Source: a virus
Direction: 5' to 3' (one strand)
Length of the DNA stretch: 64,000 bases
Virus record (IMG/VR): IMGVR_UViG_3300022744_000001
Span: 194,022 to 258,021 of that record
The notes beneath the pieces are model-generated. The model was not told where the DNA came from. It saw nothing but the letters and a program-made list of their open reading frames with translations, and ran no database searches. The stretch's first letter is position 1. Each line of letters begins with the position of its first letter. Positions 24,794 to 47,295 of the stretch are shown in pieces. The translations under genes were made by a program, and so were the position numbers.

Positions 24794-26020
24794 ATGGCAT
24801 ATGACCTGATCTGGAAAGCAGACGAAGCCCTCCCAAAACCCCAACCCGTTGCTGTCTGTGCGCGCGAACCTCTCCCCGATCGCACACGAAAAAGCATCTT
24901 CCTCGCAGGCCCGACGCCGCGAGACCAGAACACGCCGAGCTGGCGGCCCGAAGCTCTCCGCATCTTGGACAAGCTTGGGTATGACGGCTACGTCTTCATT
25001 CCCGAGGACCGTTCAGGTACCTTCTCCGGCGACTACACGGCACAGGTGGAGTGGGAGACGGCCGCGCTGAACGTGGCCGACATCATCGTCTTCTGGGTAC
25101 CTCGCGACATGAAGACCATGCCTGCCTTGACCACGAATGTCGAGTTCGGCATCTGGATGGATTCCGGCAAAGTCGTTTTGGGGGCGCCGGATTCAGCCGT
25201 GAAAAACACCTACCTCAAGTGGTGGGCGAGCAACCTGAAGGTACCTTTCTCCAACAGTCTCGAGACCACGCTGCAAGCGGCCATCGACGCCATTGGAGAC
25301 GGGGCTTCCCGCTGGGGTGGCGAAGCGCAAGTGCCGCTCCACATCTGGAAGCACCCGACCTTCCAAGGCTGGCTGCGAGCCCAGAAGGGGGCGGGCAACC
25401 GCCTCGATGGGGCCAAGGTCCTCTGGAGCTTCCGCGTAGGTCCAGAGCGCAAGAAGACGTTCGCTTGGGCCCTCCACGTGAACGTCTACGTGGCCTCCGA
25501 GGATCGAAACAAGACCAACGAGTTCGTGTTCGGTCGAGTCGATATCGCCTCTGTGGTCCTCTACCACCGAGACGACACGCACATGGACAAGGAGACCGAC
25601 GTGGACGTCATCCTGGTGCGTGAGTTCCGCTCCCCCGCACGTACGTCAGACGGGTTCATCGTCGAGCTGCCTGCGGGCAGCATCGAGAAGCTCGACCCCA
25701 AATCGGCCGCGCTGAAGGAGCTGGAGGAGGAGACCGGGGTCAAACTCGACCCGAACCGCCTTCGCCTGGTAGGTACCAAACAGGTGGCGGGTACCCTCTC
25801 TGCTCACACTTCGGTCGTTTACGCCGCCGCGATCGAATATGAGGAGTACGAAGAAATTCTCCGAACCATGGGAAAAGTCCGAGGGGTCGCTGAGGATACC
25901 GAGCGCACCACAATCACGGTAGACCGCCTCGACCATCTGCTCAGCGGAGCGAATGGTACCGAGGTAGATTGGGCGACCTTGGGGATGATCAGTGCCGCAG
26001 TTCTGACCCACAGTGATTGA
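24794..26020 (+). CDS. nucleoside 2-deoxyribosyltransferase-like domain fused to Nudix hydrolase
   Basis: The N-terminal half reads IFLAGP...TNVEFGIW, matching the NDT/SLOG fold. The C-terminal half carries the Nudix box ELPAGSIEKLDPKSAALKELEEETGV. Confidence 0.65.
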   Translation: MAYDLIWKADEALPKPQPVAVCAREPLPDRTRKSIFLAGPTPRDQNTPSWRPEALRILDKLGYDGYVFIPEDRSGTFSGDYTAQVEWETAALNVADIIVFWVPRDMKTMPALTTNVEFGIWMDSGKVVLGAPDSAVKNTYLKWWASNLKVPFSNSLETTLQAAIDAIGDGASRWGGEAQVPLHIWKHPTFQGWLRAQKGAGNRLDGAKVLWSFRVGPERKKTFAWALHVNVYVASEDRNKTNEFVFGRVDIASVVLYHRDDTHMDKETDVDVILVREFRSPARTSDGFIVELPAGSIEKLDPKSAALKELEEETGVKLDPNRLRLVGTKQVAGTLSAHTSVVYAAAIEYEEYEEILRTMGKVRGVAEDTERTTITVDRLDHLLSGANGTEVDWATLGMISAAVLTHSD

Positions 26021-27360: not shown

Positions 27361-28128
27361 CTATCCGATGAGGTCGAACCTACTCAAGACTTTCGTATCA
27401 GAAGTTTCTTCCTTCGTGCCAAAGGCATGCTGGAGGAGCGGTTTGAAAGTGCGCTCCACGTAGTCATTCGAATCAGCACGAATCTTGGCGAAATGGCACA
27501 CGGGGCAACCTGCAAACATGGAATTGGCAGAGATGTGGTCGTGCTCCGTGTTGAAACTGATCTGCGGGCCATCCGAAGTGCGGGTAATGGCGATGAAATT
27601 GCGATTGTACATCCAGTAGTAATGCCTAGTGGCCGAACTTAGGGTCACTCCGAATCGTTGCACCAGCTCAAGGATCTTCGCGACGGAAGCGTTTGGGTTG
27701 GCCTCGAGCACGAGAATGAAAGCCATGATGACCAAAGAGCTGAGGTTGAGATTGCTCCCAAGGTTCAATGGGTTGCTATCCCCGCGGTCCTTGCACTCTT
27801 CGACGTGGCAGTAGCAAGCGGGGGAGCACCGGCACATGATGGGGTACTCGCCCTCGTGGACACAGTTCTTCTCGGCTCGGTTGTGTGCCCGTTGTCGTTC
27901 GAGGTAGCGGGTTAGATGTGTGACGGCGAGGCCCTCGAACCAGTTAGGCTTCAAGACTTCCTTCTCCAAGGCCGTCCTCGCCGCTCGGAGGTGGGACACA
28001 ACGGAGGGTGTCCCCTCGTGTTGGGTTTCCAACTCCCGAAGCGTAGCCAGGGTTCTCTGCAACAAGTCGTCGGATCTCGGCAAGTTCTCGGGCATGTTCG
28101 TCAAGCCTCTCCAGAATTTGCTGTACAC
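27361..28128 (-). CDS. Cys-rich protein ending VLSRFDLIG
   Basis: CRCSPACYCHVEECKD. Its C-terminus carries the SRFDL motif. The start overlaps DUF1003 and is uncertain. Confidence 0.45.
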   Translation of the reverse strand: MYSKFWRGLTNMPENLPRSDDLLQRTLATLRELETQHEGTPSVVSHLRAARTALEKEVLKPNWFEGLAVTHLTRYLERQRAHNRAEKNCVHEGEYPIMCRCSPACYCHVEECKDRGDSNPLNLGSNLNLSSLVIMAFILVLEANPNASVAKILELVQRFGVTLSSATRHYYWMYNRNFIAITRTSDGPQISFNTEHDHISANSMFAGCPVCHFAKIRADSNDYVERTFKPLLQHAFGTKEETSDTKVLSRFDLIG

Positions 28129-28549
28129 CGCGACTGGTGAGGCGGTTGATCTCGTAATCCAAGTTGGCGTCGATACGGTCGATGGCGTTCTGCCTGTTCT
28201 GGCTCATCATGATGATCGGCGCGGTGTACGCGGCCTGCAAGCTCATGACGAGGTTCATGAGGATGAACGGGTAGGGGTCCCACGGGTGGGTGAGGTGGAT
28301 GTTCGCCGCGACCCAGCTCACGACGATGACCGTCTGAACGAGAATGAACGACCATGAGCCGACCGTTCTCGCGACTCGGTCGGCTGCGATGTCCTTGAGG
28401 GTTACTGGGCGCCGGATTTCGTCGATTACGGACGGTTTTTGATTCACGGTCGCCCTCCCCCAACTACATGATTCTCGCAATCTCGAAATGCATCCCGTCG
28501 AGACGCCCTCGATAGTGCCCACCCCAAAAGAAGCCCAGCTGGTTTGCAA
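27944..28549 (-). CDS. DUF1003 family membrane protein
   Basis: PFILMNLVMSLQAAYTAPIIMMSQNRQ is typical of DUF1003. The true start is probably an internal GTG near 28447, which removes the overlap with the endolysin. Confidence 0.55.
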   Translation of the reverse strand: MQTSWASFGVGTIEGVSTGCISRLRESCSWGRATVNQKPSVIDEIRRPVTLKDIAADRVARTVGSWSFILVQTVIVVSWVAANIHLTHPWDPYPFILMNLVMSLQAAYTAPIIMMSQNRQNAIDRIDANLDYEINRLTSRGVQQILERLDEHARELAEIRRLVAENPGYASGVGNPTRGDTLRCVPPPSGEDGLGEGSLEA

Positions 28550-29246
28550 TCGGGACCAGCTTGCGCACTGACCCCGTAGCCCCTACCAACGGGGGCTCAG
28601 CTCCGATGGGGTTCCATTTGGCGTTCAGGTCGAAAGCACTACCGTGGCTGTGGGCGGAGAGGGTCGTTGTGCTGCCCCGGACGAACCGAGCCGCGTAGGT
28701 GCCGTCAAAAGACAGGATGAGGTCGAGGAGCTTGGCCCTCTCCCATTCCCGGAAGAGCAGCTGGAGACGTGGCGCGGCCCGCTTGTGGAACCTGACCTTG
28801 CAGTTGACAGGAGCCCCTTTGATGCCACGAAGCTGGGGGATCTCGATTTCGACCAGGTTCTGGTGCACCCAGTCATCGAGGATCTCGATGCGCTCCATGT
28901 TGCCATCAATGGGCGCGGGTTTGAACTTGAACCGGCCGAACAGCTGCTCCCGCATCGCTTGCGTCGGGGAGATCAGGTCCGAACGAGGCGGCCAGCCTGG
29001 TCCAAACTCAGCATCATCTCGAACGTCGAGGTATCCTCGCTCGATGGCTTTGGCGTAGGTCAAGCGACCCACTTCCCCATCGGGCGGATGAAGCCCTACA
29101 GCGTTTTGAAACGCCTCCGTGGCCGCTTTGGTCTTTGGGCCAAAGCTACCCTCAACGAGAGACCCGGAGTAGAAACCCTGGCCGAGCAAGAAGTTCTGCC
29201 AGCGTTGAACGTCCGGGCCGATGGAACCGAACCGCAGGACTTGCAT
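28464..29246 (-). CDS. endolysin: peptidoglycan-binding domain + peptidase M15 (L-Ala-D-Glu/VanY-like)
   Basis: N-terminal GPDVQRWQNFLLGQGFY...GPKTKAATEAFQ is PG_binding_1. C-terminal SAHSHGSAFDLN...GMHFE carries the M15 zinc ligands. Confidence 0.8.
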   Translation of the reverse strand: MQVLRFGSIGPDVQRWQNFLLGQGFYSGSLVEGSFGPKTKAATEAFQNAVGLHPPDGEVGRLTYAKAIERGYLDVRDDAEFGPGWPPRSDLISPTQAMREQLFGRFKFKPAPIDGNMERIEILDDWVHQNLVEIEIPQLRGIKGAPVNCKVRFHKRAAPRLQLLFREWERAKLLDLILSFDGTYAARFVRGSTTTLSAHSHGSAFDLNAKWNPIGAEPPLVGATGSVRKLVPIANQLGFFWGGHYRGRLDGMHFEIARIM

Positions 29247-29269: not shown

Positions 29270-30070
29270 CTACTCGTTAGGTTCACTACCCTTCGGAGTT
29301 TCCGCTTCAGAGGCGGGAACCTCGGGAATGATCGGGAGCGGAACATCACTTGGGGGCGGGATTTCGATGCTGGGGTCCCCAGGCATGACCGGCTGCCTCT
29401 CCGCTGCTTCTTGCCTTTGAGCTTTTTCCTGCTCACGTAGGTAGTCCATCAGTTCCACAATGGAGTTGAACGACATCCCGTTGTCGGGCGGGAAGGATGA
29501 CCGCGTTGCGGGCTCGGGAGCCTCCTTGGTGGGTTCTGGCCGACGCTCCTTGTGTGCCATCCGATGAGGTCGCACAGCCTTCTCCAAAGGCTCGTCATAC
29601 TCCAGCAAAGCACGGGGTTTACCGCCCACCATCTCGTAATGCTCGGAATATAGCGGCTTGAAGTCGCCATAAAAGATCGCTGTCACAAGCTTTTCGCTGT
29701 CACCAGTATACGGCGGCGGATTGCGGTCAATGCGCTTGGGTTTCCACCCGTAAGGGATTTCGATAGGGTCCAGGTTCCCCTTGGGCTTGAGCCATCCGAT
29801 CTTCACCGCATGGTCGAGATACGGATTGGTTTTTGGTATGACCGTGATTTCTTGTCCCACCTTGATGAAGTGGTGACTGATGGCGTTCGGAGTCGGGCAG
29901 TAAAAGCTCTTCTTTGCAACGTAGAGGTTATCCGGCTCCGGTGTTTGTGCTGGAGGCAGACTGCGACGAGCGAAGCCGCGATTATTCCAAGCCTTGCGTG
30001 CTCGCATGAAGCCGTAGACAGCCAAAGCGGATAGCGTCACGCCGATGATGGTCTCGATCATAGAGCACAT
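29270..30070 (-). CDS. membrane-anchored protein adjacent to endolysin (possible lysis accessory)
   Basis: N-terminal TM helix. The C-terminus is Pro/Glu-rich. Confidence 0.45.
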   Translation of the reverse strand: MCSMIETIIGVTLSALAVYGFMRARKAWNNRGFARRSLPPAQTPEPDNLYVAKKSFYCPTPNAISHHFIKVGQEITVIPKTNPYLDHAVKIGWLKPKGNLDPIEIPYGWKPKRIDRNPPPYTGDSEKLVTAIFYGDFKPLYSEHYEMVGGKPRALLEYDEPLEKAVRPHRMAHKERRPEPTKEAPEPATRSSFPPDNGMSFNSIVELMDYLREQEKAQRQEAAERQPVMPGDPSIEIPPPSDVPLPIIPEVPASEAETPKGSEPNE

Positions 30071-30132
30071 CTACACCGATCCTCACCGCTACCAAAAAAC
30101 TGGTTAAGGCACTCATACCCCGGTGTACTGAG

Positions 30133-30173
30133 GACCATGGTCATCGTGACCATGGTTATCGGAACCATGGTCC
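30133..30173 (+). promoter_or_regulatory. three tandem 15-bp units each containing the palindrome (G)ACCATGGT(C); candidate operator array
   Basis: ACCATGGT occurs at 30134, 30149 and 30164 with exact 15-bp spacing, directly upstream of the NAD-operon regulator. Confidence 0.4.
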
Positions 30174-30943
30174 TCAACACCAGGGTAGTCATGTATCGTT
30201 ACAAATATCCGCGACCGTCGGTTGCTGTGGATCTCGTCACCTTTGGGTACGACGCGACCCAGGCAGAGATCAGTGTCCTACTCATCAAGCGCAAGCACGA
30301 TCCCTTCGAAGGGAAATGGGCCTTGCCTGGGGGGTTTGTCGAGGTTGGAACCGAGGACGATTTCTCGGGGTCAAAGCCTTCGAACTACGGGGAGTCGCTC
30401 GAGGACGCTGCGCGTCGTGAGCTGAAGGAGGAGACTGGGGCGGAGCCCGAGTACATCGAACAGCTCGGGACGTTCGGGGACCCCAATCGTGATCCTCGCG
30501 GGCGAGTCATCTCGGTCGCCTACCTCAGCCTCGTGCGCTCCAAGGACCTCACTGTCAAAGCCAGCTCGGATGCAGCCGAGGCGGTGTGGTGGCCTTTGAA
30601 GTCTGCCCTTCGCCAGAAGTTCGCCTTCGACCACAACACCATCCTGAATCAGGCCGTAACTCGACTTCACTCAAAGGTTCGGTACGCGCCAATCGGGTTC
30701 AACCTTCTCCCGCAGAAGTTCACCTTGCACGAGCTGCAAGAACTCTACGAGGCGCTTCTCTTGCGCCAGCTCGATAAGAGCAACTTCCGAAGGAAAGTGC
30801 TCTCCGTGGGGATTCTGGCCGAGGCCGGTCAACGCGTCCACGGGAAGCAAACCGTCCAACTCTACCGATTCGACAAGCGCGCCTACGACAAGGTCAGCGC
30901 TGCTGGCTTCAATTTCGAACCCAAGTTCGTGAAGGGGAAATGA
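30137..30943 (+). CDS. Nudix hydrolase domain + C-terminal winged-helix (NrtR-like ADP-ribose-responsive regulator)
   Basis: Nudix box GGFVEVGTEDDFSGSKPSNYGESLEDAARRELKEETG. C-terminal FTLHELQELYEALL...DKSNFRRKVL resembles the NrtR wHTH. The real start is probably the ATG at 30191. Confidence 0.6.
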   Translation: MVIVTMVIGTMVLNTRVVMYRYKYPRPSVAVDLVTFGYDATQAEISVLLIKRKHDPFEGKWALPGGFVEVGTEDDFSGSKPSNYGESLEDAARRELKEETGAEPEYIEQLGTFGDPNRDPRGRVISVAYLSLVRSKDLTVKASSDAAEAVWWPLKSALRQKFAFDHNTILNQAVTRLHSKVRYAPIGFNLLPQKFTLHELQELYEALLLRQLDKSNFRRKVLSVGILAEAGQRVHGKQTVQLYRFDKRAYDKVSAAGFNFEPKFVKGK

Positions 30944-32355
30944 TCATGCTTCGACCCAACCTCGCACTCAACACCGACTCCTACAAGCTCTCGCACCCGT
31001 GGCAATACCCTGACGGGCTCGAGTACATGCAGTCCTATTTCGAAAGCCGTGGTGGCCTCTTCGGAAAGACCATGAGCCTTGGCTACCAGGGGTTGGCCAA
31101 GACCAACCTGCTCGACCCGGTCACCAAGGACGACGTGGAGGAAGCCAAGGAGGTCGCGGAGGCCCATGGCGAACCTTTCGAGTACGGCGGCTGGATGCGC
31201 ATTGTGGACAAGTTCGAGGGCAAGCCCCCCATCCGCATCTTGGCCGTGCCCGAAGGTACTATGGTCCCGACGCACAACTTGCTGATGCGGGTGGAGTCCA
31301 TGGACAAGGAAACGGCGTGGCTCCCCGGGCACGTCGAGTCCATGTTGGTCCGCCTTTGGTACCCGCAGACGGTCGCGACTCTCTCGCACTACATCAAGCG
31401 GGACATTCTCGAGGCCCTGATCAAGTCGTCCAACGACCCCTGGGGGGAGATCCTCTTCAAGCTGCATGACTTCGGGGCTCGAGGGTGCAGCTCGCTCGAG
31501 ACGGCGGGTATCGGCGGTATGGCGCACCTGGTCAATTTCCAGGGCACCGACACCATCGAGGCTCTTCGCTACGTCCGGAAATACTACGGCGAGTCGATGG
31601 CGGGGTTCTCCATCCCCGCGGCGGAGCACTCGACCATCACGAGCTGGGGCCGGGAGAACGAACTCCTCGCCTACCGGAACATGGTCAAGCAGTTCGCGAA
31701 GCCCGGCAAGTTCGTGGCGTGTGTCTCGGACAGCTACGACATCTACAACGCGGTTCGTCTCTGGGGCAGTGAACTCCGCGAAGAGGTCAAGGCCAGCGGC
31801 GGCACCCTGGTCATTCGTCCTGACTCCGGCATCCCCGTCGAGGTGGTCATGAAGTGCCTCCGCATCCTGGAAGACCAGGTGGGCATGACCAAGAACATGA
31901 AGGGGTACAAGGTCCTCCCGTCCTACTTCCGCCTGATCCAGGGTGACGGGGTCAACCGCGACTCCATCCGCGAAATCCTCGCCGAGATGCTCGCGAACGG
32001 CTACTCGGCGAGCAACATCGCCTTCGGCATGGGTGGCGGCCTCCTGCAACAGGTCAACCGCGACACCCAGAAGTACGCCTACAAGTGCTCGCAGGTCATC
32101 ATCAACGGGCAGCCCCGTCGCGTCTTCAAAGACCCGGTCACGGACCAGGGCAAGAAGTCGAAGGCAGGCAACTTGGACATCGTGTTCGAGAACGGGCAGT
32201 TCAAGACCATCGAACTCGAGCCCGGCACCTCTCTCAGCCGCAACACGGCACTCAAGCCCATCTACGAAATGGGCAAACTCTTGGTAGATGAAAAGTTCTC
32301 CGACGTGCGGAAGCGTGCTGACAGCGACCTCGTCGAAGGCTACGGAAGGGCATGA
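30940..32355 (+). CDS. nadV: nicotinamide phosphoribosyltransferase (NadV/Nampt)
   Basis: LALNTDSYKLSHPWQYPDG...YFESRGG matches the NAMPT N-terminus. 471 aa, ATGA-coupled to its neighbours. Confidence 0.85.
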   Translation: MIMLRPNLALNTDSYKLSHPWQYPDGLEYMQSYFESRGGLFGKTMSLGYQGLAKTNLLDPVTKDDVEEAKEVAEAHGEPFEYGGWMRIVDKFEGKPPIRILAVPEGTMVPTHNLLMRVESMDKETAWLPGHVESMLVRLWYPQTVATLSHYIKRDILEALIKSSNDPWGEILFKLHDFGARGCSSLETAGIGGMAHLVNFQGTDTIEALRYVRKYYGESMAGFSIPAAEHSTITSWGRENELLAYRNMVKQFAKPGKFVACVSDSYDIYNAVRLWGSELREEVKASGGTLVIRPDSGIPVEVVMKCLRILEDQVGMTKNMKGYKVLPSYFRLIQGDGVNRDSIREILAEMLANGYSASNIAFGMGGGLLQQVNRDTQKYAYKCSQVIINGQPRRVFKDPVTDQGKKSKAGNLDIVFENGQFKTIELEPGTSLSRNTALKPIYEMGKLLVDEKFSDVRKRADSDLVEGYGRA

Positions 32356-33449
32356 CCATGATCACGAATCAACCAGCTGCTGTTTTGCTCAACCACGCGC
32401 CGTTGCGGGTTGCCATCGCGGCTTCGGGGGCCGGAGCAGGACTCCAGAAAACCCTCTGGGACGTTCCCGGCATCTCCGCGGTCTTGGTCGAGGCTTCCTT
32501 CCCCTATGCGATGGAGGCGACTGACCAGTTCCTGCGGTTCAAGCCTGACCGGTATTGCTCGGCTTGCACTGCCGTCGAGATGGCCATGGAGTGCTACTAC
32601 CGGGCATTCCAGTACAACGGCCCCCGGGCCATCGGGGTTGGGCTCAGTGCCTCGGTGGCATCCCTAAAAGCCCACCGGGGCGAGCACCGGGTCTTTGCGG
32701 CGTCCTTCTCGGACAAGGGGTGCCGGGTCTACGAACGAGTGCTGGAGAAGACCAACGAACCGGCAACCCTCGCTCGTGTGCTTGACGGGGCGGTGGCCGA
32801 CGCCATGGGCCTTCTGGCGCTCCTGGAGGCCGTAGGAGCGGCGATGGACAACGCCCCCGAGGCAACCGACTATGACGGGGCGGCCCTCGCTCACGAGGCG
32901 TTCTGGGCCCGTCCTGTGTTCACCAAGACCGGGCAGCGGGTGACCGAGGCTGAGGCCGAGGTGGAAGCGATCTTCCCCGGGGCCTTCAACCCGCCCCATC
33001 ACGGGCACTTTGGGATGGCCCACAACTTCCAAGGGTATACTCGGATCAGCCCCACCTTTCATGTCACGGCGGAGACGCCCCACAAGCCCCCGCTTTCCGT
33101 GGCAGAGATGCTGCAACGAGCCAAGATGCTTGAGGGGCACCACCGGATGTTCACCCGGAACGACCCCCTGTACGTGGACAAGGCGGCCAAGTTCCCCGGG
33201 CGTCCGATCCTCGTCGGGTCGGATGCGCTCGAGCGCCTGCTCGACCCCAAGTGGGGGCCAACCCCAGAAGAGCTGGGCTCCACATTCGAGGAGCATGGGA
33301 CGGTTTTCTACGTCCCTGAAACCCGGGTCGTGAACGGCCGCGAAGTGAAGCTCGAGGACCTGACCCTACCCAAAGGCTTGAGGGTGATTCGACTCCCTGG
33401 CCGTTGGGATGTCAGCTCCTCCGAGCTTCGCGCTACTTCCGCCGCTTAG
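32352..33449 (+). CDS. CinA-C/PncC-like domain fused to nicotinamide/nicotinate mononucleotide adenylyltransferase (NMNAT)
   Basis: The C-terminal GAFNPPHHGH...VSSSELRA matches NadD motifs. The N-terminal LWDVPGISAVLVEASFPYAME...ACTAVEMAMEC...GVGLSASVAS aligns with the CinA C-terminal (NMN deamidase) fold, but the ESCTGG motif is replaced by ASGAGAG. Confidence 0.65.
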   Translation: MTMITNQPAAVLLNHAPLRVAIAASGAGAGLQKTLWDVPGISAVLVEASFPYAMEATDQFLRFKPDRYCSACTAVEMAMECYYRAFQYNGPRAIGVGLSASVASLKAHRGEHRVFAASFSDKGCRVYERVLEKTNEPATLARVLDGAVADAMGLLALLEAVGAAMDNAPEATDYDGAALAHEAFWARPVFTKTGQRVTEAEAEVEAIFPGAFNPPHHGHFGMAHNFQGYTRISPTFHVTAETPHKPPLSVAEMLQRAKMLEGHHRMFTRNDPLYVDKAAKFPGRPILVGSDALERLLDPKWGPTPEELGSTFEEHGTVFYVPETRVVNGREVKLEDLTLPKGLRVIRLPGRWDVSSSELRATSAA

Positions 33450-33768
33450 ACTTGCCAGAGGGCGGCGGAACCGTTTCCTTGGCCGGGGGCTCCTCCTCGA
33501 GCTTGGCAACAGGCTCAGGCGTTTCTACCGCCAAAGGAACGCTCTCAACGACCGGAGCTTCGTCGTTGAGAGCGGGTTTTGGGGCCTCTTGGGCGATCAG
33601 CTTCTTGACCACAAGCTCAGGCTTCGGCGTCATTTTGCGAAGCTCGAGCACCTCTGTGATCAGATCCACCAGGTGCGTCTCAGCGTGAGCCAGGTGCATT
33701 CCGGCAATTTGGCAACGAAATGCCCTGGCTTTCAGATCGATCAGTTCCTGGTCTGTCAGTCGAGCCAT
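33433..33768 (-). CDS. hypothetical protein
   Basis: 111 aa with a P/E/K-rich tail. Confidence 0.4.
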   Translation of the reverse strand: MARLTDQELIDLKARAFRCQIAGMHLAHAETHLVDLITEVLELRKMTPKPELVVKKLIAQEAPKPALNDEAPVVESVPLAVETPEPVAKLEEEPPAKETVPPPSGKSKRRK

Positions 33769-36110: not shown

Positions 36111-36744
36111 GGCCGGTGGGAGGGGCACTCGAACCCGGGCCTTGGTCCTGGCCGGGAATGCGCCGAATGCCCATGATCATCATCCTCCCCGCTGCCTCGT
36201 GCTGGGAGTGGCTGTCCACCTGCAAAACGACATTGACCACGGTGCGACCCAGCCGCATCCAGGCTTGCTCGAGCGCCTTAACCCCCTCGTTGACGTCGTG
36301 GACCAATGAGTGCATCTCCTCGGAGATTTCGCAGTTCGAATCGTGCAGCAGCTCCACAAACAAGGACGCGATATCGATCAACAGGTCGTGTCGCTCCTCG
36401 GGGGAAGCCCCGCTGAACTTGCGCACGCTTTCGAGCAGGTCCGGGGACGTGAACAGGTCGTCCTTGTGGATGCGCCCACAAGCCCCGCATACCTCACTGG
36501 GAGGGGCCCCTTTACTCCGCCAGATGCTGGCCGCAGATGTCACCACCTCCGAAACGGTCTCCTCCCCACGACGGGAGACAACCACTGTGACGACGGGGGC
36601 CCAACCAGTTTTGGACTGCGCGAGCTTGATGTCCTTGATCGTGCCCTCAATCCGCAATCCGCCCGCATCTGTTTCTACTTCTGCCCCAATCGCGAGATCT
36701 TGTTCTGCCATGTTTTCTCCGTGACAATCGTACACCGGAATCAA
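36103..36744 (-). CDS. hypothetical protein
   Basis: 213 aa. Confidence 0.4.
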   Translation of the reverse strand: MIPVYDCHGENMAEQDLAIGAEVETDAGGLRIEGTIKDIKLAQSKTGWAPVVTVVVSRRGEETVSEVVTSAASIWRSKGAPPSEVCGACGRIHKDDLFTSPDLLESVRKFSGASPEERHDLLIDIASLFVELLHDSNCEISEEMHSLVHDVNEGVKALEQAWMRLGRTVVNVVLQVDSHSQHEAAGRMMIMGIRRIPGQDQGPGSSAPPTGLN

Positions 36745-37445
36745 CGGCGTCTCGTTTTCTTGCGCTTCGACGTTTCCGCTTCCCTTGCGGCCGTGACCAG
36801 ACGAGCTTGGTCTTGACGAGCTTGGTCTTGCTCTTCCGCCTCTTTGGCCGCGACGATGGCGGCCCGGTTCATGTGAGCGCGGTCCATCGCCTCGTCGCCC
36901 GTGATTCGCTCATAGGGGACCTTGTTGTCCCGAAGAGCCCGGACACGTTCGATCTCGTCCTCCGAATGAACCGTTCCGCCCGCGTTCAAGTCGATGTACC
37001 AGGAGTACACGTCGTTGATCGTCTTGAGTTCGTTCACGTGCCACCGGAAGCGGCACTGCATGATGTCGAACCCGTCCGTGTACTCCCGATGGTAGTGGCC
37101 GAACGCTTTGATCTCGTTGCTCAGGTAGCCAATGACTGCATCAATACGCTGCTTGCCGTCCACGAGCACGTACCAGCACTTTGGGTCGTTTTTGTCCACG
37201 AACCCCTGCCACGTGGGGCAGTTCGTGTAGATGTCCTTGCCCGACTTGCCGCCGCTCAGGATGTACTCGACGAACCGAGTTTTCTGCGCCTCTGTCCAGA
37301 CGTTCCCTCGCTGGAAGTTGGGGTTGACGTCCAGGCCGTAGTCCATCACCTGGCTGTAGTAGTATTTCGCAAGGTAGTTCCACCCCACGTCAACGGCGTA
37401 CAGCCCGGCACTGGGGGTCATCTGGGGGATATCACGATAGCGCAT
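36741..37445 (-). CDS. DUF262 (ParB-like nuclease domain, DGQQR motif) protein
   Basis: NFQRGNVWTEAQKTRFVEYIL...LVDGKQRIDAV. A 15-bp tandem repeat (QDQAR x2) sits in the C-terminal coding region. Confidence 0.6.
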   Translation of the reverse strand: MRYRDIPQMTPSAGLYAVDVGWNYLAKYYYSQVMDYGLDVNPNFQRGNVWTEAQKTRFVEYILSGGKSGKDIYTNCPTWQGFVDKNDPKCWYVLVDGKQRIDAVIGYLSNEIKAFGHYHREYTDGFDIMQCRFRWHVNELKTINDVYSWYIDLNAGGTVHSEDEIERVRALRDNKVPYERITGDEAMDRAHMNRAAIVAAKEAEEQDQARQDQARLVTAAREAETSKRKKTRRR

Positions 37446-37484: not shown

Positions 37485-37985
37485 CTATACCGCTTTGAAG
37501 CTCTGCGCCTTCTTTTGAAGGGCTTCGGCCACAATCGGGTGGACATAATAGCTCACGTCCGCGCCCCAGCTCGCCAGCTCTTTGACGTTCGTGGAACTCA
37601 CGAACGACTGTTCCGGTTGGGTCATCAGGAAGATCGTGTCGATGCTCGGGCAAAGCTGGCGGTTCACATGCGCGATCCCCATCTCAGCCTCAAAGTCGGC
37701 GATGGCGCGCAGCCCACGAATGATGGTTTTGGCCCCTACCTGCTTGCAGAAGTCCACAAGAAGGCCGCGGAAAGGCATCACCGTGACCTTGGGGATTTTC
37801 TCGGCCACAAAAACCTGGGTGATGAGTCGAACGCGCTCCTCTTCGTCGAAGAACGGCTTTTTCTTGGAATTCATCAGAACCCCGATCACCAACTCGTCCG
37901 CGATCTCAAGACCTCGCGTAGCGATGTTGAAGTGTCCGTTGGTGAACGGGTCGAAACTGCCTGCGTAAGCCGCGATCTTCGTCAT
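37485..37985 (-). CDS. coaD: phosphopantetheine adenylyltransferase (CoaD/PPAT)
   Basis: AYAGSFDPFTNGHFNI, IRGLRAIADFEAEMGIAHVNR and IFLMTQPEQSFVSSTNVKE align closely with E. coli CoaD along its whole length. Confidence 0.85.
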   Translation of the reverse strand: MTKIAAYAGSFDPFTNGHFNIATRGLEIADELVIGVLMNSKKKPFFDEEERVRLITQVFVAEKIPKVTVMPFRGLLVDFCKQVGAKTIIRGLRAIADFEAEMGIAHVNRQLCPSIDTIFLMTQPEQSFVSSTNVKELASWGADVSYYVHPIVAEALQKKAQSFKAV

Positions 37986-39504: not shown

Positions 39505-40062
39505 ATGAGCTTCATTGGCATCAAAGTGCCTCACGAGGTCGGTCGTTTGCTTCACACCATAGAGGTACCGGGCGAAAAGGTACCTCTCCACGAGTTCCAC
39601 GTGACCCTCCTCTACCTGGGCAAAGAAGTGCCCATTGAAACCTTGGGCAAGGCCATCGTGGCCGCGGCCGAAGTCGCGGAGTCGTACCGCCCCTTCCGTT
39701 GCACGCTCACGCAAACCAGCTCTTTCCCCAAAGGCGATGACGGGGTACCCATCATCTGTCCTGTGGACAGCCCCGAACTCCACGAACTCAATACGCAGCT
39801 CAAAGCAGCTTTTGACGCGGCGGGAGTGGACTACTCGAAAAAGTTCCCCGACTACAAACCGCACGTGACGTTGGCCTACTCCGACGAGGTCACAGCGGAC
39901 ACGCTGTTCGGACCACTCGAGTGGTCCGCCTACGAGATGGTGCTCTGGGGCGGGGACGCGGGGGATGAGCGTCTTGCCACCAACTTCCCATTTGCCTTGC
40001 CCACGACGGTAGCCACGAACCAGCAGCTCGTACGCCTCGCCATGGCGATGAAGAAGAGCTAG
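39505..40062 (+). CDS. 2H phosphoesterase superfamily protein (LigT-like)
   Basis: Two H-x-T-x motifs are present: FHVTLLYLG and PHVTLAYS. 185 aa. Confidence 0.65.
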   Translation: MSFIGIKVPHEVGRLLHTIEVPGEKVPLHEFHVTLLYLGKEVPIETLGKAIVAAAEVAESYRPFRCTLTQTSSFPKGDDGVPIICPVDSPELHELNTQLKAAFDAAGVDYSKKFPDYKPHVTLAYSDEVTADTLFGPLEWSAYEMVLWGGDAGDERLATNFPFALPTTVATNQQLVRLAMAMKKS

Positions 40063-40891: not shown

Positions 40892-42322
40892 TCAATCCTC
40901 GTCGTCTTCGTCCTCATCTTCGTCGTCGTCTTCATCCTCGTCTTCGTCGTCGTCCTCTTCGTCGTCCGAGTTATCCTCGTCGTCGTAGTCGTTGCCTTCG
41001 TCCTCGTCGCCCTCTTCGTCGGCGTCCTCGTCGCCTTCGGCTTCCTCTTCCTTGTCCTCCTCGATTTCGTTGTACTTGAAGAAATCGTAGACCTGGGAAA
41101 GGGTCATGGGCTGATTGAACTCGGCTTCGTCGCCCTCGGAGAGGCGGGCGTAAACTTCCTGCGCCCTCTCCACGCTCAGCGGTCCGATGTAAACCTGCTT
41201 CGACAAACGACCCGTGCGAAGCAGCGCGTCGTCGATCTCCTGCATCTTGGCGTTTGTGGTGCAGATGATACGAAGGTTCAAGGCGCTACCCAAGATACCA
41301 TCGCTTGCATTGAGTAGGGCGGAGATGGCTGCCAGGTTGGCCTCATCGTTGTCCACCACTGGGCCCACCGTTTTGAGAAGTGCGTTTTGCGCATCGATGA
41401 GGATGGTCGCCACTTCAGGGGTCAACATTTGCTTGGCAAGAAGGCCGCCGATGAGGTCGAACAGCTTCTGGAACTCCTTGACCAACGAGGATTCCTTTTT
41501 GCGAGGAACCAGCGCTCGGTCGGCATCCTCGATGAGAAGCACGATGGGCTTTTCGACCCCAATCATGCTGCGAGCACGGATGAGGGTAGGTACGAGGTTC
41601 GGACCGGCCAAGTGCTCGACCATGCCCGCCGGGATCAGAACGAACACGGCGTCGTAGACCTCGTGCAAGAGGCCCCGGATGAAGAACGTTTTGCCGGTGC
41701 CCGGTTCGCCCTGAATGATGACCAAACGGCCGATGGGGGTGGCGCGTTGCAGGTCGTCCACGATGAAGTCGAAAGCATCGACCACATCGGCTTCGTAGTT
41801 GTCACGCTCGATGGGAACGCCCGCAAGGCCCACTTCACCGATCTCGATGCCGTTGGCCCCCTGGGCAAGGGAGTAGATGGGCTGGCGAACGAACTCGGGC
41901 AACAGATGGTCCCCGAGACGCTTGTTGACGTCCTCGAACGTCTTCCGGTTCGTGGAGACCACGCGGATGTCGTATTTGTTATCCAGACCGGTGTGGATTT
42001 TGACGGCGCCCTCTGGCCAGAAAAGCCAGGTTTCACTCGTGCCACGCCCGAAGATGGGCACATCTGCGAACGGAGAGCGGGCTCCCGTGATAGATGCGAT
42101 GGCCTCGAAGAGCTTCTCCTGCCCCTGCTCGTCGGACTCCTCGATCAGCACTCCACGGCACCCACCCGAGAACACGGTGAGGTTGTTTGCGACAGCATGG
42201 TCAACGAGCATCGTCGCCGCAGGCCCATACTCCTCCAGCACCAGTTTCCCTGGAGCCCACCAATCCAACTTGGGAGGCTCTTTCGGCGGCTCGCGTCGGC
42301 TCTTGTCGTTCTTGGTTGCCAT
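40892..42322 (-). CDS. classic AAA-family ATPase with poly-acidic C-terminal tail
   Basis: Walker A IIQGEPGTGKTF, Walker B VLLIEDAD, sensor-1 CTTN and SRH ALLRTGRL are all present. About 70 C-terminal residues are almost entirely D/E. Start taken at MATKNDK (42322). Confidence 0.7.
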   Translation of the reverse strand: MATKNDKSRREPPKEPPKLDWWAPGKLVLEEYGPAATMLVDHAVANNLTVFSGGCRGVLIEESDEQGQEKLFEAIASITGARSPFADVPIFGRGTSETWLFWPEGAVKIHTGLDNKYDIRVVSTNRKTFEDVNKRLGDHLLPEFVRQPIYSLAQGANGIEIGEVGLAGVPIERDNYEADVVDAFDFIVDDLQRATPIGRLVIIQGEPGTGKTFFIRGLLHEVYDAVFVLIPAGMVEHLAGPNLVPTLIRARSMIGVEKPIVLLIEDADRALVPRKKESSLVKEFQKLFDLIGGLLAKQMLTPEVATILIDAQNALLKTVGPVVDNDEANLAAISALLNASDGILGSALNLRIICTTNAKMQEIDDALLRTGRLSKQVYIGPLSVERAQEVYARLSEGDEAEFNQPMTLSQVYDFFKYNEIEEDKEEEAEGDEDADEEGDEDEGNDYDDEDNSDDEEDDDEDEDEDDDEDEDEDDED

Positions 42323-42504
42323 GATTTTCTCTTCTTTTCGTCTCCGGAGGCGTCGAGCCTCCCGCCTTCCCGTACACCAATCACATGCTGAACTTGGGCT
42401 TTTGCCCGCATTCGCCTCAAAAAAGCCACGAAACGGCAGCGGAGCCGGTAGGTTTGCGCTGGGAAATCCCCGAGCTGAGCTAAACCGCCCTTGGCTAAGT
42501 TGAG

Positions 42505-42735
42505 CTATTTGCTGGGTTTCGGTTCTGAATTTGGGAAAATGGAAGCAATGAGGCAGCCCAAGTGATAGGGCACTTCCCGGTCTTCCTCTTTGGTGGCCGC
42601 CGCGAAGGGCAGAACTACGCCCCGGTCTCCATGGCGTATCGGTTCTTGGCACGCAAAACAGGGTTTTGACGGGGTGGACACTTGCTGCCCGGTTTCACAC
42701 ACCCCTGCCTTCCACGGCGGCCCGAACCACTTCAT
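42505..42735 (-). CDS. possible small Cys/His protein in long divergent intergenic region
   Basis: 76 aa ORF (CFACQ...HLGC). Weak support. Confidence 0.2.
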   Translation of the reverse strand: MKWFGPPWKAGVCETGQQVSTPSKPCFACQEPIRHGDRGVVLPFAAATKEEDREVPYHLGCLIASIFPNSEPKPSK

Positions 42736-43804: not shown

Positions 43805-46042
43805 CTACTCAGCGGCTTCGGCGAAGTTCCCCGGACCAACAAGACCAACCAAGTGCTGACGCGCGACCCGGTACGTGTTCTTCGCGGTCTGGATCTCGGC
43901 CCGAATGGCCGCGCTCTCGAGGTTGCGATCAATGGTGTTGATGAGGTCGTCGGGGGTGATTTCAATGCCGTTCTCCCGCAACATGCGCTCGAGCTTGGCC
44001 TGACGCTCGAGCGAGAACTTGGAGCGGTCAAACTTCGTCCCCTCCTCCTGCAAGAACTTCACGACCTCTTGAGCCTTCTCTGGCCTGCGGTTCACGAAGT
44101 TGCGCATGTTCTTGCGCCAGAGGTCGTCGGCCATCTTGCGCACGGTGTCGCCCACGGCCCCCTCGAGTTTGGTTGAAGCATCGGTCCATGCCACGTCCGA
44201 GAAATTCGGGGACAGGGGCAAGTACGACAAGGAGCGGCGGAGCAGCTTCACACGGTCCACATGAGCCAGCTCGCCCACCAGAAGGACCTTGGCGAAGCGG
44301 CGGATGATGGGCATGGACATGCGCTCGGGATGGTTCGTCGCGCCCCACACGGAGATACCCGAGTAGGAGAGCACGCCGTCCATGAGAATCTGGAACTCGG
44401 TTGTGAGGTTCGTACCCCCGAACGCTTCGTGTCCCTGATTGCCGTTGAGCACCGTGTCGATCTCGTCGATGGAGATGAACGCTTGGCGCTCGGTCTCCTT
44501 GTGGAGCTGCAAGGCAGCCTCGAACAGGCGCTTGGGGTTCTTCTCGGCCTCACCCTTCCAGCAGGTGAGGAAGTCGGAGCCCTGGGCGAAGATGGTGAGC
44601 GCATTCCTCTCGCTGCTGATGGCTCGGAGAGCCTCGGTCTTGCCACACCCCATGGGGCCGACCAAGAGCACGTTGCTCTTGTCGGTCTTGCCGCTCGGGC
44701 TCGTGGCCCGGAAAAGGTCGGCGTACATGGACGAGTCCTTCGCCTGCTCGACCATCTCCCGAACTTCGTCGAAGCCCGACCCCACCAGGTCCCCGAGCGA
44801 GACCTTGGGCTTGAGGCCCGGGATGACCTCGAGCGCTCCAGGGGCCTCCCCCAGGAAGGAGTTGCCCGCCCCCACCTTGCACACGTAGAACGAGTTCTCG
44901 TCCCGGTGGATCTTGTACCACTGGGCCTTGCGTGCGAGCACGAACTTCACGATTTCCTGCCCGCTCTTCTCAGTGAGGAGTAGGCCCGAGATGGTCGAAA
45001 TCGTCTCGTTGCGGAAGTCGATCTCCATCTGCTCTTCGGGACTCTTGAGGCCAACCTTGTCCCTCTCCCGAACGTTGCGGGGGTCAAGCTCGCTGACCGA
45101 ACGGAGAGCCTCTTTGAACTCCGACTCATTCATGAGGCGGCGCGGGGGCTTGCCTCCAGTCACGCGGCGGATCTTCTCGGCCGCCGTGTGAATCTTGGCC
45201 TCGATTTTCTCCGCCCCTTCCCACATGGAGGTGAGGTTTTCGGAAAGGAAGTCGATGATTTCCCCGGGCTCCTTCACGAACCCGCCGAAGAGGCCACCAC
45301 AGAGGGCGTCGGCCAGGATCGTGGCCTTGCGCTGGGTGTAAACGCTGATCTCGTCCGGCTTCTTGCCGTCCTGGATTTCACCATGCGCGTCCGCGTTCTC
45401 GTAGATGGAGATGGCCAGGTCCGTACGAACGGGGTCACCGTGAATTTTGATGCCTTCCACGCTGTGCCGGTGTCGAAGCATCTTGTGGTACATCTCGAGG
45501 TGGAAAACCACGCCTCGAGCAATAGACACCACCAGGTTTTGCAGGACAGCGGCGTTCTCAACCCCTTCCACGAAGCGCTGCAAAGGCTCCTGGTTCATCT
45601 GCACCAGAAGCACGAACGCTTGCAGCTCCTCTCGGGTCGTCGGGGGTTTGACGTCGCCGAAGAGCATGAGGTTCATGGGTTGAATCGCATGCACCGTGTC
45701 GCGGAGCGCGTGAAATCCGTTCTGAATTGCCCGGGAGATGCTGAGGATGAGCGCCACGAAGTTGCCTGCGCCCATCGTGTGCTTGAACTGCTGAAACCAG
45801 TCCTCTTGCTGGTTCATGTCGAAGGGGTTCTTCGTTCTGAGCGAGTTCTTGGCCTCTGCGACCATCGCGCTGTAGGTGTCCCCGATCTCCTCGACGCGCT
45901 CATCGAATTCTTCGCACAACTTGTCGAGGAAAGCCCCGGTTTCACGAAGGCCGTCGTAGTCGAAGTCCAACACCAGGCCCACGAGATCCGTGAACTGGGC
46001 CGGAGTGATAGATACTTTGGAAACCATTTTGTCGATGTACAT
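43805..46042 (-). CDS. large classic AAA-family ATPase with about 480 aa unique N-terminal region
   Basis: Walker A VLLVGPMGCGKTE, Walker B FISIDEIDTV and sensor-1 GATNHPERM are present. Start uncertain: the track's extreme end (46075) would be TTG; the first in-frame ATG is at 46042, with another at 46027. Confidence 0.65.
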   Translation of the reverse strand: MYIDKMVSKVSITPAQFTDLVGLVLDFDYDGLRETGAFLDKLCEEFDERVEEIGDTYSAMVAEAKNSLRTKNPFDMNQQEDWFQQFKHTMGAGNFVALILSISRAIQNGFHALRDTVHAIQPMNLMLFGDVKPPTTREELQAFVLLVQMNQEPLQRFVEGVENAAVLQNLVVSIARGVVFHLEMYHKMLRHRHSVEGIKIHGDPVRTDLAISIYENADAHGEIQDGKKPDEISVYTQRKATILADALCGGLFGGFVKEPGEIIDFLSENLTSMWEGAEKIEAKIHTAAEKIRRVTGGKPPRRLMNESEFKEALRSVSELDPRNVRERDKVGLKSPEEQMEIDFRNETISTISGLLLTEKSGQEIVKFVLARKAQWYKIHRDENSFYVCKVGAGNSFLGEAPGALEVIPGLKPKVSLGDLVGSGFDEVREMVEQAKDSSMYADLFRATSPSGKTDKSNVLLVGPMGCGKTEALRAISSERNALTIFAQGSDFLTCWKGEAEKNPKRLFEAALQLHKETERQAFISIDEIDTVLNGNQGHEAFGGTNLTTEFQILMDGVLSYSGISVWGATNHPERMSMPIIRRFAKVLLVGELAHVDRVKLLRRSLSYLPLSPNFSDVAWTDASTKLEGAVGDTVRKMADDLWRKNMRNFVNRRPEKAQEVVKFLQEEGTKFDRSKFSLERQAKLERMLRENGIEITPDDLINTIDRNLESAAIRAEIQTAKNTYRVARQHLVGLVGPGNFAEAAE

Positions 46043-46074
46043 GGCCAACCAGTACACCGGCAGGTGTAAAGGCA

Positions 46075-47295
46075 ATGCACATGGACCAGTTTGTTCGGCG
46101 AAAATTAACCGAGCTGAAACCCCACCCTAAGAACGACGCATTCTTCCATGACCTGCGCCTATCCCCTAAATACCCGCTTGTACGGGAACAGGTTTGCAGT
46201 GGCGAGATCCAAAACCCGCTCACTGTCCTGTCGGACGGCACGGTTGTATCGGGCCACCTTCACTATCTAGCCGCTCTTGAGCTTGAGGTAGAGGAAGCTC
46301 CCATTCAGCTTTACGAGGGGAACTGGAACGAGGTGCACGAGCTGGAGTTCTTGCTCCAAGCGAACGCCCAACTCGGGTACCTGGGGTTCGAACAGATAGC
46401 GATCGCGTACTCTCTCCTTTTGGGAGGGGCGATTGAGAAGCCCAAGGACGCCAGCAAAGGCGGGCGGCCGAAGAAGGGGGCTGCCCCATCTCCGGAACGG
46501 CGACAAAGCACCAAAGAGCGGGTAGCGCGGCTCCTGGGGGTTTCTGCGAAAACCGCAGAGCACTTGCACCTGATCTACCTGACGCCCGGGGTCCCTGCGG
46601 ACATTCACGACGCTGTTGAAAACCGAATGGTCCCCATCGCCCTCGCGGCGGATGCGGTGCAGTTCAGCATCCATGAGGCCCTTCGACGCAACCCTCACAC
46701 GAAATTCGTCGTGGTGGACCCGATTGACGTGCGTACGTACATCGAGACGCCCCCAAACAAACGACGCACGAAAATGGTGGACCTGCTCAAGGGCAAGCGT
46801 CCCCGCCCCCTCCCTCCCGTCATGCTCGAGGGGAAAGAAGTTGCTGACTACCACAAGCGGGTCTTTTCTTCGGTCCCGCCCCCCTTCCATCCAAAGCAGA
46901 GCGTGCAGAGCATGATTCGAGACGGGGTCCACTGGGATGATCTCGAGGTGCCAGACAACGACATCCCGCTTCACGAGGCCATTGGGCGCATTCGGGCTCG
47001 ACTCAGCAAGGCTTTCGAGGCCCCCGTCCTGGTACACGAGGACAAGGTCGAGGAGGCCCTAAACTCGCTCCTTTTGGAAGTTGCGCGGCTCATGAAGTCG
47101 CACCACGGCAAGGAAGTCTCGGTCCGCATCGGGAGCGCTCCAGTAGCCCCCAAACCGCGCCCCAAAGCCACCGTGAAACCCAAGGCAGAGTCAAAGCCCC
47201 CTTCGAAGCCCCCGGCCCCCACCGTCTTCGCTACCGAGGTCGAGTTCATCGTCTCCTTGCTCGGGCTGGAGACCGTCCAGGCACTAGGGCGCTAG
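46075..47295 (+). CDS. ParB N-terminal-domain-like protein
   Basis: LKPHPKNDAFFHDL...LTVLSDGTVVSGHLHYLAA resembles the ParB/Srx fold with its GxxR-type motif. Confidence 0.5.
   Translation: MHMDQFVRRKLTELKPHPKNDAFFHDLRLSPKYPLVREQVCSGEIQNPLTVLSDGTVVSGHLHYLAALELEVEEAPIQLYEGNWNEVHELEFLLQANAQLGYLGFEQIAIAYSLLLGGAIEKPKDASKGGRPKKGAAPSPERRQSTKERVARLLGVSAKTAEHLHLIYLTPGVPADIHDAVENRMVPIALAADAVQFSIHEALRRNPHTKFVVVDPIDVRTYIETPPNKRRTKMVDLLKGKRPRPLPPVMLEGKEVADYHKRVFSSVPPPFHPKQSVQSMIRDGVHWDDLEVPDNDIPLHEAIGRIRARLSKAFEAPVLVHEDKVEEALNSLLLEVARLMKSHHGKEVSVRIGSAPVAPKPRPKATVKPKAESKPPSKPPAPTVFATEVEFIVSLLGLETVQALGR

Follow-up and report, generated by a model that had tools for sequence, protein, structure and literature searches.

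Do phages sense the damage done by host immunity, and do they pay the metabolic cost of repairing it only then? The question becomes testable with a three-gene operon, nrtR-nadV-P3, found in a 64,000-nucleotide stretch of viral DNA (IMG/VR record IMGVR_UViG_3300022744_000001, positions 194,022 to 258,021), hereafter called the window. The phage pathways that rebuild nicotinamide adenine dinucleotide (NAD+), namely NAD+ reconstitution pathways 1, 2 and 3 (NARP1, NARP2, NARP3), have been published as unregulated gene pairs, and NARP2 is reported to be costly, using phosphoribosyl pyrophosphate (PRPP) with or without an attack on NAD+. The chemistry predicted for the operon is that of NARP2 and is already known. 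New for phage NAD+ rebuilding would be the pathway's own repressor, of the ADP-ribose (ADPR) type and with predicted operators, and, for the final step, an uncharacterised fusion enzyme. On balance we think it probable that NrtR represses the operon through four operators, that ADPR or a related NAD+ breakdown product relieves this repression, that NadV and the C-terminal domain of P3 together make NAD+, and that the N-terminal domain of P3 binds a mononucleotide without deamidating it.

Organization of the operon

The features of the locus, in coordinates of the window, are as follows.

30094..30129, + strand: conserved leader box AAAAAACTGGTTAAGG and a weak candidate for a sigma-70-like promoter (leader comparison; promoter putative)
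30120..30186, no strand: predicted NrtR operator array (motif count, palindromes, conservation)
30191..30943, + strand: nrtR, Nudix plus winged-helix transcription factor, 250 residues (Pfam, NCBIfam and PDB profile matches)
30940..32355, + strand: nadV, nicotinamide phosphoribosyltransferase (Nampt), 471 residues (NCBIfam, phrog_448, PDB)
32352..32936, + strand: P3 N-terminal domain, CinA/PncC fold with a remodelled active site, residues about 1-195
32949..33449, + strand: P3 C-terminal domain, NadD/NMNAT-class adenylyltransferase, residues about 200-365

The listing of open reading frames (ORFs) of the window gives three frames on the + strand, 30137-30943, 30940-32355 and 32352-33449, joined by ATGA start/stop overlaps at 30940-30943 and 32352-32355. 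The first-pass annotation, which was made from the letters of the window and its ORF list, had described three coupled genes with such overlaps, and both overlaps are present. A second in-frame ATG lies 6 nt downstream at each junction, so that coupling would be tight whichever start is used; for P3, it is the second ATG that agrees with the N-termini of the closest homologues. The end of the operon, 33449, was correctly placed, but its start had been put at 30133 and has to be moved. The start of nrtR is most likely the ATG at 30191 (MYRYKYP...), not 30133 or 30137: the homologues at the comparison loci L023, L024 and L033-L035 align from the residue encoded there, and the upstream in-frame ATGs at 30137, 30152 and 30167 fall within ACCATGGT operator half-sites. 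The segment 30120-30186 is a regulatory operator array rather than coding sequence. Genes on the - strand border the operon on both sides (29270-30070 and 33433-33768), and its GC content equals that of the rest of the window. An antisense ORF (30883-32049, - strand, 388 residues), which runs against the strongly supported nadV, was dismissed as a high-GC artefact.

NrtR and its predicted operators

The first gene had been taken for a Nudix protein with a winged-helix DNA-binding domain, and profile searches agree. The Pfam families NUDIX (7.6e-21, 75 bits) and NrtR_WHD (3.4e-19, 69 bits) both match above their cutoffs, and the protein aligns end to end with B. thetaiotaomicron AraR (PDB 5bs6, 9.5e-37) and S. 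oneidensis NrtR (PDB 3gz5, 8e-33). It carries a 13-residue acidic loop insertion and is, as judged from its sequence, a divergent member of the family. In characterised NrtRs, ADPR releases the protein from DNA (PMC2330246). The window protein has an intact Nudix box, E-x7-RELKEETG, as does every NadV-linked relative examined, in contrast to the degenerate box of S. oneidensis NrtR. Because an intact signature correlates in this family with ADPR pyrophosphatase activity (PMC2330246), a dual role of the phage protein as sensor and enzyme is plausible.

It was established previously that NrtR binds 21-bp palindromes with a GT-N7-AC core, often arranged in tandem (Rodionov et al. 2008, PMC2330246), and the array in front of nrtR fits this description. 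Four (G/T)GT-N7-ACC cores follow each other with a 15-bp period (30124-30136, 30139-30151, 30154-30166 and 30169-30181). Their building blocks are three palindromic ACCATGGT half-sites (at 30134, 30149 and 30164) and, at the ends of the array, the degenerate half-sites CGGTGT and ACCAGGGT; of the 21-bp palindromes, two show no mismatch and a third shows one. The octamer ACCATGGT occurs exactly three times in the 64 kb, each time in the array. When the double-operator pattern was searched with at most one mismatch, four matches were obtained against 0.18 expected, three of them in the array, and the pattern also stands at the equivalent place in L033 and L034. Across the syntenic contigs L033-L035 the GGT and ACC triplets persist (as AGT and ACT at some sites of L035), but the spacers have drifted, as have the middle two bases of every half-site; this is the pattern that would be expected of protein contacts. 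The array adjoins the ribosome-binding region of nrtR, and the operon is, as we read it, repressed by its own product NrtR.

In the leader, an A-run, GTnGTT and CGGTGTACT are invariant in the four syntenic phage sequences. The candidate promoter (TGGTTA, a 17-nt spacer and TGTACT) follows the conserved A-rich box and overlaps the first operator half-site. A consensus scan gave no promoter at the leader or inside the operon, and no credible terminator after P3. Among bacterial and other viral relatives, L009, L023 and L024 have GTGT-N7-ACAC sites upstream of nrtR that overlap TTGAC(A/G) -35-like and -10-like hexamers.

The arrangement has a close parallel in the bacterial NrtR regulons (for instance S. 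oneidensis nrtR-prs-nadV and Synechocystis nadM-nadV; PMC2330246), which likewise combine a Nudix-winged-helix repressor, for which ADPR is the characterised inducer, with tandem 21-bp GT-N7-AC palindromes upstream of the nadV operon. The present copy differs from them in being phage-borne, in its half-site, through which adjacent operators share half-sites at a 15-bp period, and in the partner of NadV, which is P3 here and Prs or NadM there.

One could suppose instead that the Nudix-winged-helix protein is mainly an ADPR pyrophosphatase, comparable to the Nudix half of NatV from Vibrio phage KVP40, and that the leader repeats are incidental. An intact Nudix box in all NadV-linked homologues, tracking as it does with that activity (PMC2330246), would be in keeping with this. 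However, the C-terminal NrtR winged helix is complete, and the array is unique in the window, periodic, consensus-matching and kept where the flanking bases drift. A purely enzymatic role is highly improbable in our opinion; a protein that is both enzyme and regulator is more likely.

NadV and the first step

The second ORF matches the Pfam families NAPRTase (7.6e-57) and NAMPT_N (3.7e-22) and phrog_448 (4.5e-147). Its assignment as nicotinamide phosphoribosyltransferase, made already in the first-pass annotation, is supported by a score of 585 bits against NCBIfam PRK09198 (cutoff 405) and by matches to the biochemically characterised Xanthomonas NAMPT (PDB 7yqo, 2.2e-155) and to human NAMPT (1.8e-112). 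The AAEHST and HDFG motifs are aligned between NadV and the NAMPT structures; the former we take to be the motif holding the autophosphorylated histidine. No Prs-like gene was found in the 21-kb neighbourhood of the operon. Thus the protein is predicted to be a PRPP-using Nampt without a linked Adps- or Prs-like gene, as in NARP2.

P3, a PncC-like domain fused to an adenylyltransferase

The third gene product had been proposed to be a fusion of a PncC-like domain with a nicotinamide mononucleotide (NMN) adenylyltransferase, with Pfam searches suggested as the check. These were significant for NAPRTase and NUDIX in the two preceding genes; on the single P3 sequence both remaining models stayed below threshold, CinA (PF02464) with 20.9 bits for a cutoff of 23.5 and CTP_transf_like with 20.7 bits for a cutoff of 21. 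No PHROG family matched P3. Both domain assignments were confirmed by a family profile searched against PDB, which found B. subtilis NadD (1kam, 1.7e-8), and by a fold search with a model of P3 based on 61 homologues (mean predicted local distance difference score 95, predicted template-modelling score 0.93), in which the N-terminal domain has the CinA fold. The homologues are numerous and of the same length and architecture; among 1.84 billion representatives, the profile search found 1,293 P3 clusters (50% identity clusters) at E <=1e-30. HMM, profile, structure-prediction and comparative evidence together uphold the three genes with their domain assignments, their tight coupling and the description of the operon as a distinct variant.

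The C-terminal domain has a Rossmann-like fold with the (H/T)xGH and ISSTxxR motifs of the NadD/NMNAT class, and in the 61 sequences the adenylyltransferase motifs GAFNPPHxGH, PPHK and SS[ST]xxR are invariant or nearly so. It has the HxGH, PPHK and SxTxxR motifs and the fold in common with B. subtilis NadD (1KAM) and Chaetomium NMNAT (9IW1), but is shorter (about 165 residues), shares 13-18% identity with solved structures and always occurs with the N-terminal PncC-like domain. No homology was found between the P3 transferase and KVP40 NatV, which is of the NadM type. A second cytidylyltransferase of the window (37485-37985, - strand) was considered as the real NMNAT and rejected, as it is CoaD, a phosphopantetheine adenylyltransferase (TIGR01510, 179 bits, cutoff 103).

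To what extent the N-terminal domain retains the active site of PncC was read from an ungapped block anchored at G46, S48 and Y58 of A. tumefaciens PncC. The register came from PDB 2a9s; an E. coli PncC sequence, one residue short downstream of K61, served only to confirm it. The positions compare as follows (A. tumefaciens residue, role, state in P3).

S31, the nucleophile: serine in the protein of the window, threonine in 55 of the 61 homologues
K63, the general base: Lys in none of the 61, replaced by T, Q, L, S or A
S48, binds phosphate: S42, conserved in 60 of 61
Y58, binds phosphate: Y52, conserved in 61 of 61
R145, binds phosphate: R142 in 61 of 61, mapped by secondary-structure position and not by the aligned block

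The Ser/Lys catalytic dyad (S31/K63) of the deamidase is therefore missing from the P3 family, and the A. tumefaciens K63A mutant is inactive (PMC5384747). Compared with the PncC/CinA deamidases (A. tumefaciens 2A9S, T. thermophilus 4CT8 and E. coli YgaD), P3 has no catalytic lysine, has the ESCTGG block changed to A(T/S)GAGAG with E30 and C32 replaced, scores under the Pfam gathering threshold and is fused to an adenylyltransferase. It has also acquired the invariant HRGxHR, K133 and D145; the new residues H108, H112, R113, K133 and D145 lie in or around the loop that lines the PncC active site. As the catalytic lysine is absent from all 61 homologues, canonical NMN deamidation by this domain is unlikely, and the domain probably still binds a mononucleotide, the 5'-phosphate of which the conserved residues would hold.

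These residues can also be read in the opposite sense. NadV would make NMN, and P3 would be a bifunctional NMN deamidase/nicotinic acid mononucleotide (NaMN) adenylyltransferase that delivers nicotinic acid adenine dinucleotide, to be finished by a host or phage NadE; T/S25 would work with His108/His112 or Lys133 as a substitute base. Fusions of consecutive enzymes are common, the C-terminal domain is nearest to the NaMN-preferring bacterial NadD, a hydroxyl is still present at the nucleophile position, the phosphate-binding residues are retained, and the loop after beta-3 has gained a cluster of invariant His, Lys and Arg. Against this stand the replacement of the general base in every homologue and the loss of E30 and C32. 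Moreover, no SGGxDS motif of NadE occurs in the 64 kb and no NadE in any operon locus examined, and the route would burden a pathway valued for its speed with one more step, which consumes ATP and ammonia. We consider such a deamidating route quite unlikely, and prefer direct adenylation of NMN with the N-terminal domain as a binding module.

The P3 family has neither a Pfam nor a PHROG model and no description in the literature searched. It comprises about 1,300 clusters at 50% identity, and surveys for NatV or NadM homologues would overlook the phages that carry it. No link could be made between P3 and nrtX/nrtY of Rodionov et al., and two recent systems, NARP3 (PnuC plus NadR, PMC13464706) and cyanobacterial NMNAT-C (PMC13036487), are unrelated to it.

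Comparison with phage NAD+ pathways

NARP2 consists of a phage Nampt and Nmnat (NadV and NatV of KVP40) and overcomes Thoeris and other NADase defences; it overproduces NAD+ even without defence and probably costs PRPP (bioRxiv 10.1101/2024.02.11.579819). The first-pass annotation had placed the operon in this NadV/NatV-type salvage. The predicted chemistry, nicotinamide plus PRPP to NMN to NAD+ by a Nampt followed by an NMN adenylyltransferase, is indeed that of NARP2, and a Nudix module is associated with both. The adenylyltransferase, on the other hand, is not of the NadM/NatV type: here a transferase of the NadD/eukaryotic-NMNAT class is fused to a PncC-like domain, whereas NatV is NadM-type and usually Nudix-fused. 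The Nudix domain is joined here to a DNA-binding domain instead of the transferase, and the operator array predicts regulated, not constitutive, expression.

Iyer et al. describe phage NAD+ synthesis enzymes as NadV with NadM or NadR, and three pathways are still counted in the NARP3 paper (August 2026), where NrtR is named solely as a regulator in bacteria. In the open literature, with most subscription journals outside the scope of the search, no phage NrtR-controlled pathway and no PncC-like/NadD-like fusion was described. A cultured jumbo phage may nevertheless offer a parallel. In Bacillus phage G (NC_023719, 200123-206236; L026), gp273, annotated as a MutT/NUDIX hydrolase, is a full-length NrtR-like protein, and it heads the NAD salvage genes gp273-gp281. 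That cluster differs in following the deamidated (Preiss-Handler-type) route, with isochorismatase (pncA-like), pncB and nadD, and in having neither NadV nor P3; it is possibly a regulated deamidated salvage route.

Distribution of the operon

The exact P3 protein is on record on a 448,224-bp contig, and the window is from a jumbo phage. The metagenomic contigs L033, L034 and L035 are syntenic with it across the operon and its neighbours. At 14 of the 21 distinct P3 loci examined (window included), NadV is encoded on the same strand no more than 6 kb upstream, and in 9 of these 14 nrtR also stands in front. In catalogued phages P3 is rare: one match in 50,697 records, and one protein of the same fold in BFVD.

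The gene order is also found in bacteria. A 2.7-Mb bacterial contig carries nrtR-nadV-P3, and in a Polyangiaceae genome the three genes are followed by NADAR, so that P3 stands beside NadV and NADAR in the slot where Iyer et al. describe NadM. This bacterial distribution rests on three contigs from an exact-protein look-up; a scan of bacterial genome contigs with the P3 profile gave, among the matches listed, one weak full-length relative. The unit is thus a bacterial salvage operon that phages also carry, and not phage-specific, and the P3 family marks this undescribed operon in bacteria as well.

Several variants were observed. In the Polyangiaceae metagenome-assembled genome (L024/L025, 3264-9660), a second nrtR, an ADP-ribosylglycohydrolase and SIR2 are divergent from nrtR-nadV-P3-NADAR, resembling a regulon of NAD consumption and NAD rebuilding in one place. 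A longer operon, consisting of NadV, a protein of about 325 residues of unknown nature, an adenylosuccinate-synthetase-like (PurA-like) protein, a protein-kinase-like protein and then P3, occurs on large viral or viral-like contigs (L007, 936-7083; L010, 38-7200; L030, 1-6143; L031, 1-6095), and L031 has downstream neighbours in common with the window. Among the closest relatives, in L034 (3117-3974) and L035 (3845-4516), one or two small ORFs without a family (68 residues; 215-223 residues) lie between nadV and P3. The nadV/P3 junction appears to be a variable slot.

Possible roles: regulation on demand or metabolic support

With these elements the following course may be proposed. NrtR dimers on the four tandem operators, between the promoter region and the start codon of nrtR itself, would shut the operon down. 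When immune effectors with TIR, SIR2 or SEFIR domains cleave NAD+, the ADPR produced would release NrtR from DNA. NadV would then condense nicotinamide and PRPP to NMN, and the C-terminal domain of P3 would adenylate NMN with ATP to NAD+, while the N-terminal domain would most likely bind NMN or a similar nucleotide, whether to capture it, to hand it over or to exert allosteric control, and would not deamidate it. The PRPP-consuming pathway would in this way run mainly while NAD+ is being destroyed. Given its intact Nudix box, NrtR may also hydrolyse ADPR to AMP and ribose-5-phosphate, feeding PRPP synthesis. The enzyme activities, the effector and the promoter are predictions, and the counter-defence role is transferred by analogy from the published NARP2 work.

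A more far-reaching version makes the operon a counter-defence switched on by the product of the immune effector itself: NrtR would sense ADPR or an ADPR-derived Thoeris-type signal and leave the array, NAD+ would be rebuilt on demand, and the PRPP expense that limits constitutive NARP2 would be avoided. The remodelled PncC-like part of P3 would in addition be a catalytic or allosteric module of a new kind, by which its large uncharacterised family is defined. We put this forward tentatively and regard it as doubtful.

Alternatively, the operon may be an auxiliary metabolic module taken over from a bacterial host that maintains NAD+ homeostasis during a long jumbo-phage infection, with NrtR as an ordinary feedback regulator. 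The identical architecture and similar operators on bacterial chromosomes speak for this, as do the agreement in GC content between operon and phage and the nearby nucleotide-metabolism genes (dNMP kinase, thymidylate synthase, MazG and CoaD). Yet a phage Nampt and Nmnat have been found experimentally to beat Thoeris and other NADase systems (bioRxiv 10.1101/2024.02.11.579819), and an Acb1-like 2H phosphoesterase is encoded 6 kb away. As metabolic and counter-defence roles are mutually compatible, the two need not be set apart strictly; taken by itself, a metabolic role seems rather unlikely to us.

Several points weigh against the regulated, non-deamidating NAD+ synthesis that we favour. First, NCBIfam NtrR matches the regulator at 1.2e-50, but its 172 bits are far below the 400-bit equivalog cutoff, and the best PDB match is the arabinose-responsive AraR (5bs6); for these two reasons ADPR is named here as the presumed effector. 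Secondly, with nrtR at the head of the operon that it would control, the operon must be expressed once, when the genome enters, before there is any repressor, and induction by ADPR may consequently matter less than simple negative feedback. Thirdly, because bacterial chromosomes carry nrtR-nadV-P3 too, the phage may use the operon for housekeeping or as a metabolic boost. In P3, the C-terminal domain is closest in sequence to NadD enzymes that prefer NaMN, and the very strong conservation of T/S25, H108, H112, R113 and K133 in the N-terminal domain would also fit catalysis with a substitute base. Finally, the stretch examined is 64 kb of a phage of about 448 kb.

Genes around the operon

The neighbourhood encodes an endolysin (PG_binding_1 plus Peptidase_M15_4), a deoxynucleoside monophosphate (dNMP) kinase, a DNA methyltransferase, a thymidylate synthase, MazG-like and DHH proteins, and many short ORFs without a known family. 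A 793-residue protein of the window (phrog_2426, 595 bits) is common to 467 phage records, Vi1-like phages for the most part. Together with the length of the 448-kb contig, the endolysin and protein families confined to phages mark the window as phage DNA. A search for tRNA genes gave none in the window.

The phosphoesterase mentioned above (39505-40062, + strand, 185 residues) scores 35.4 bits against 27 with Pfam Acb1 (anti-CBASS) and also passes 2_5_RNA_ligase2. It is present in L034 as well and may degrade cyclic-nucleotide signals. A 408-residue protein (24794-26020, + strand) joins a nucleoside 2-deoxyribosyltransferase-like domain (PF15891) to a Nudix domain and could act on ADPR-derived or modified nucleotides. 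The CoaD gene adjoins that of a GmrSD_N/DUF262 protein (36741-37445, - strand), a pair kept in L033-L035. Two large AAA+ ATPases of 586 and 756 residues (40892-42652 and 43805-46075, both - strand) have long N-terminal regions without a known family. Directly downstream of the endolysin gene (28464-29246) lies that of a DUF1003 protein (27944-28549, - strand), a pairing kept in L033, which may be part of a lysis cassette.

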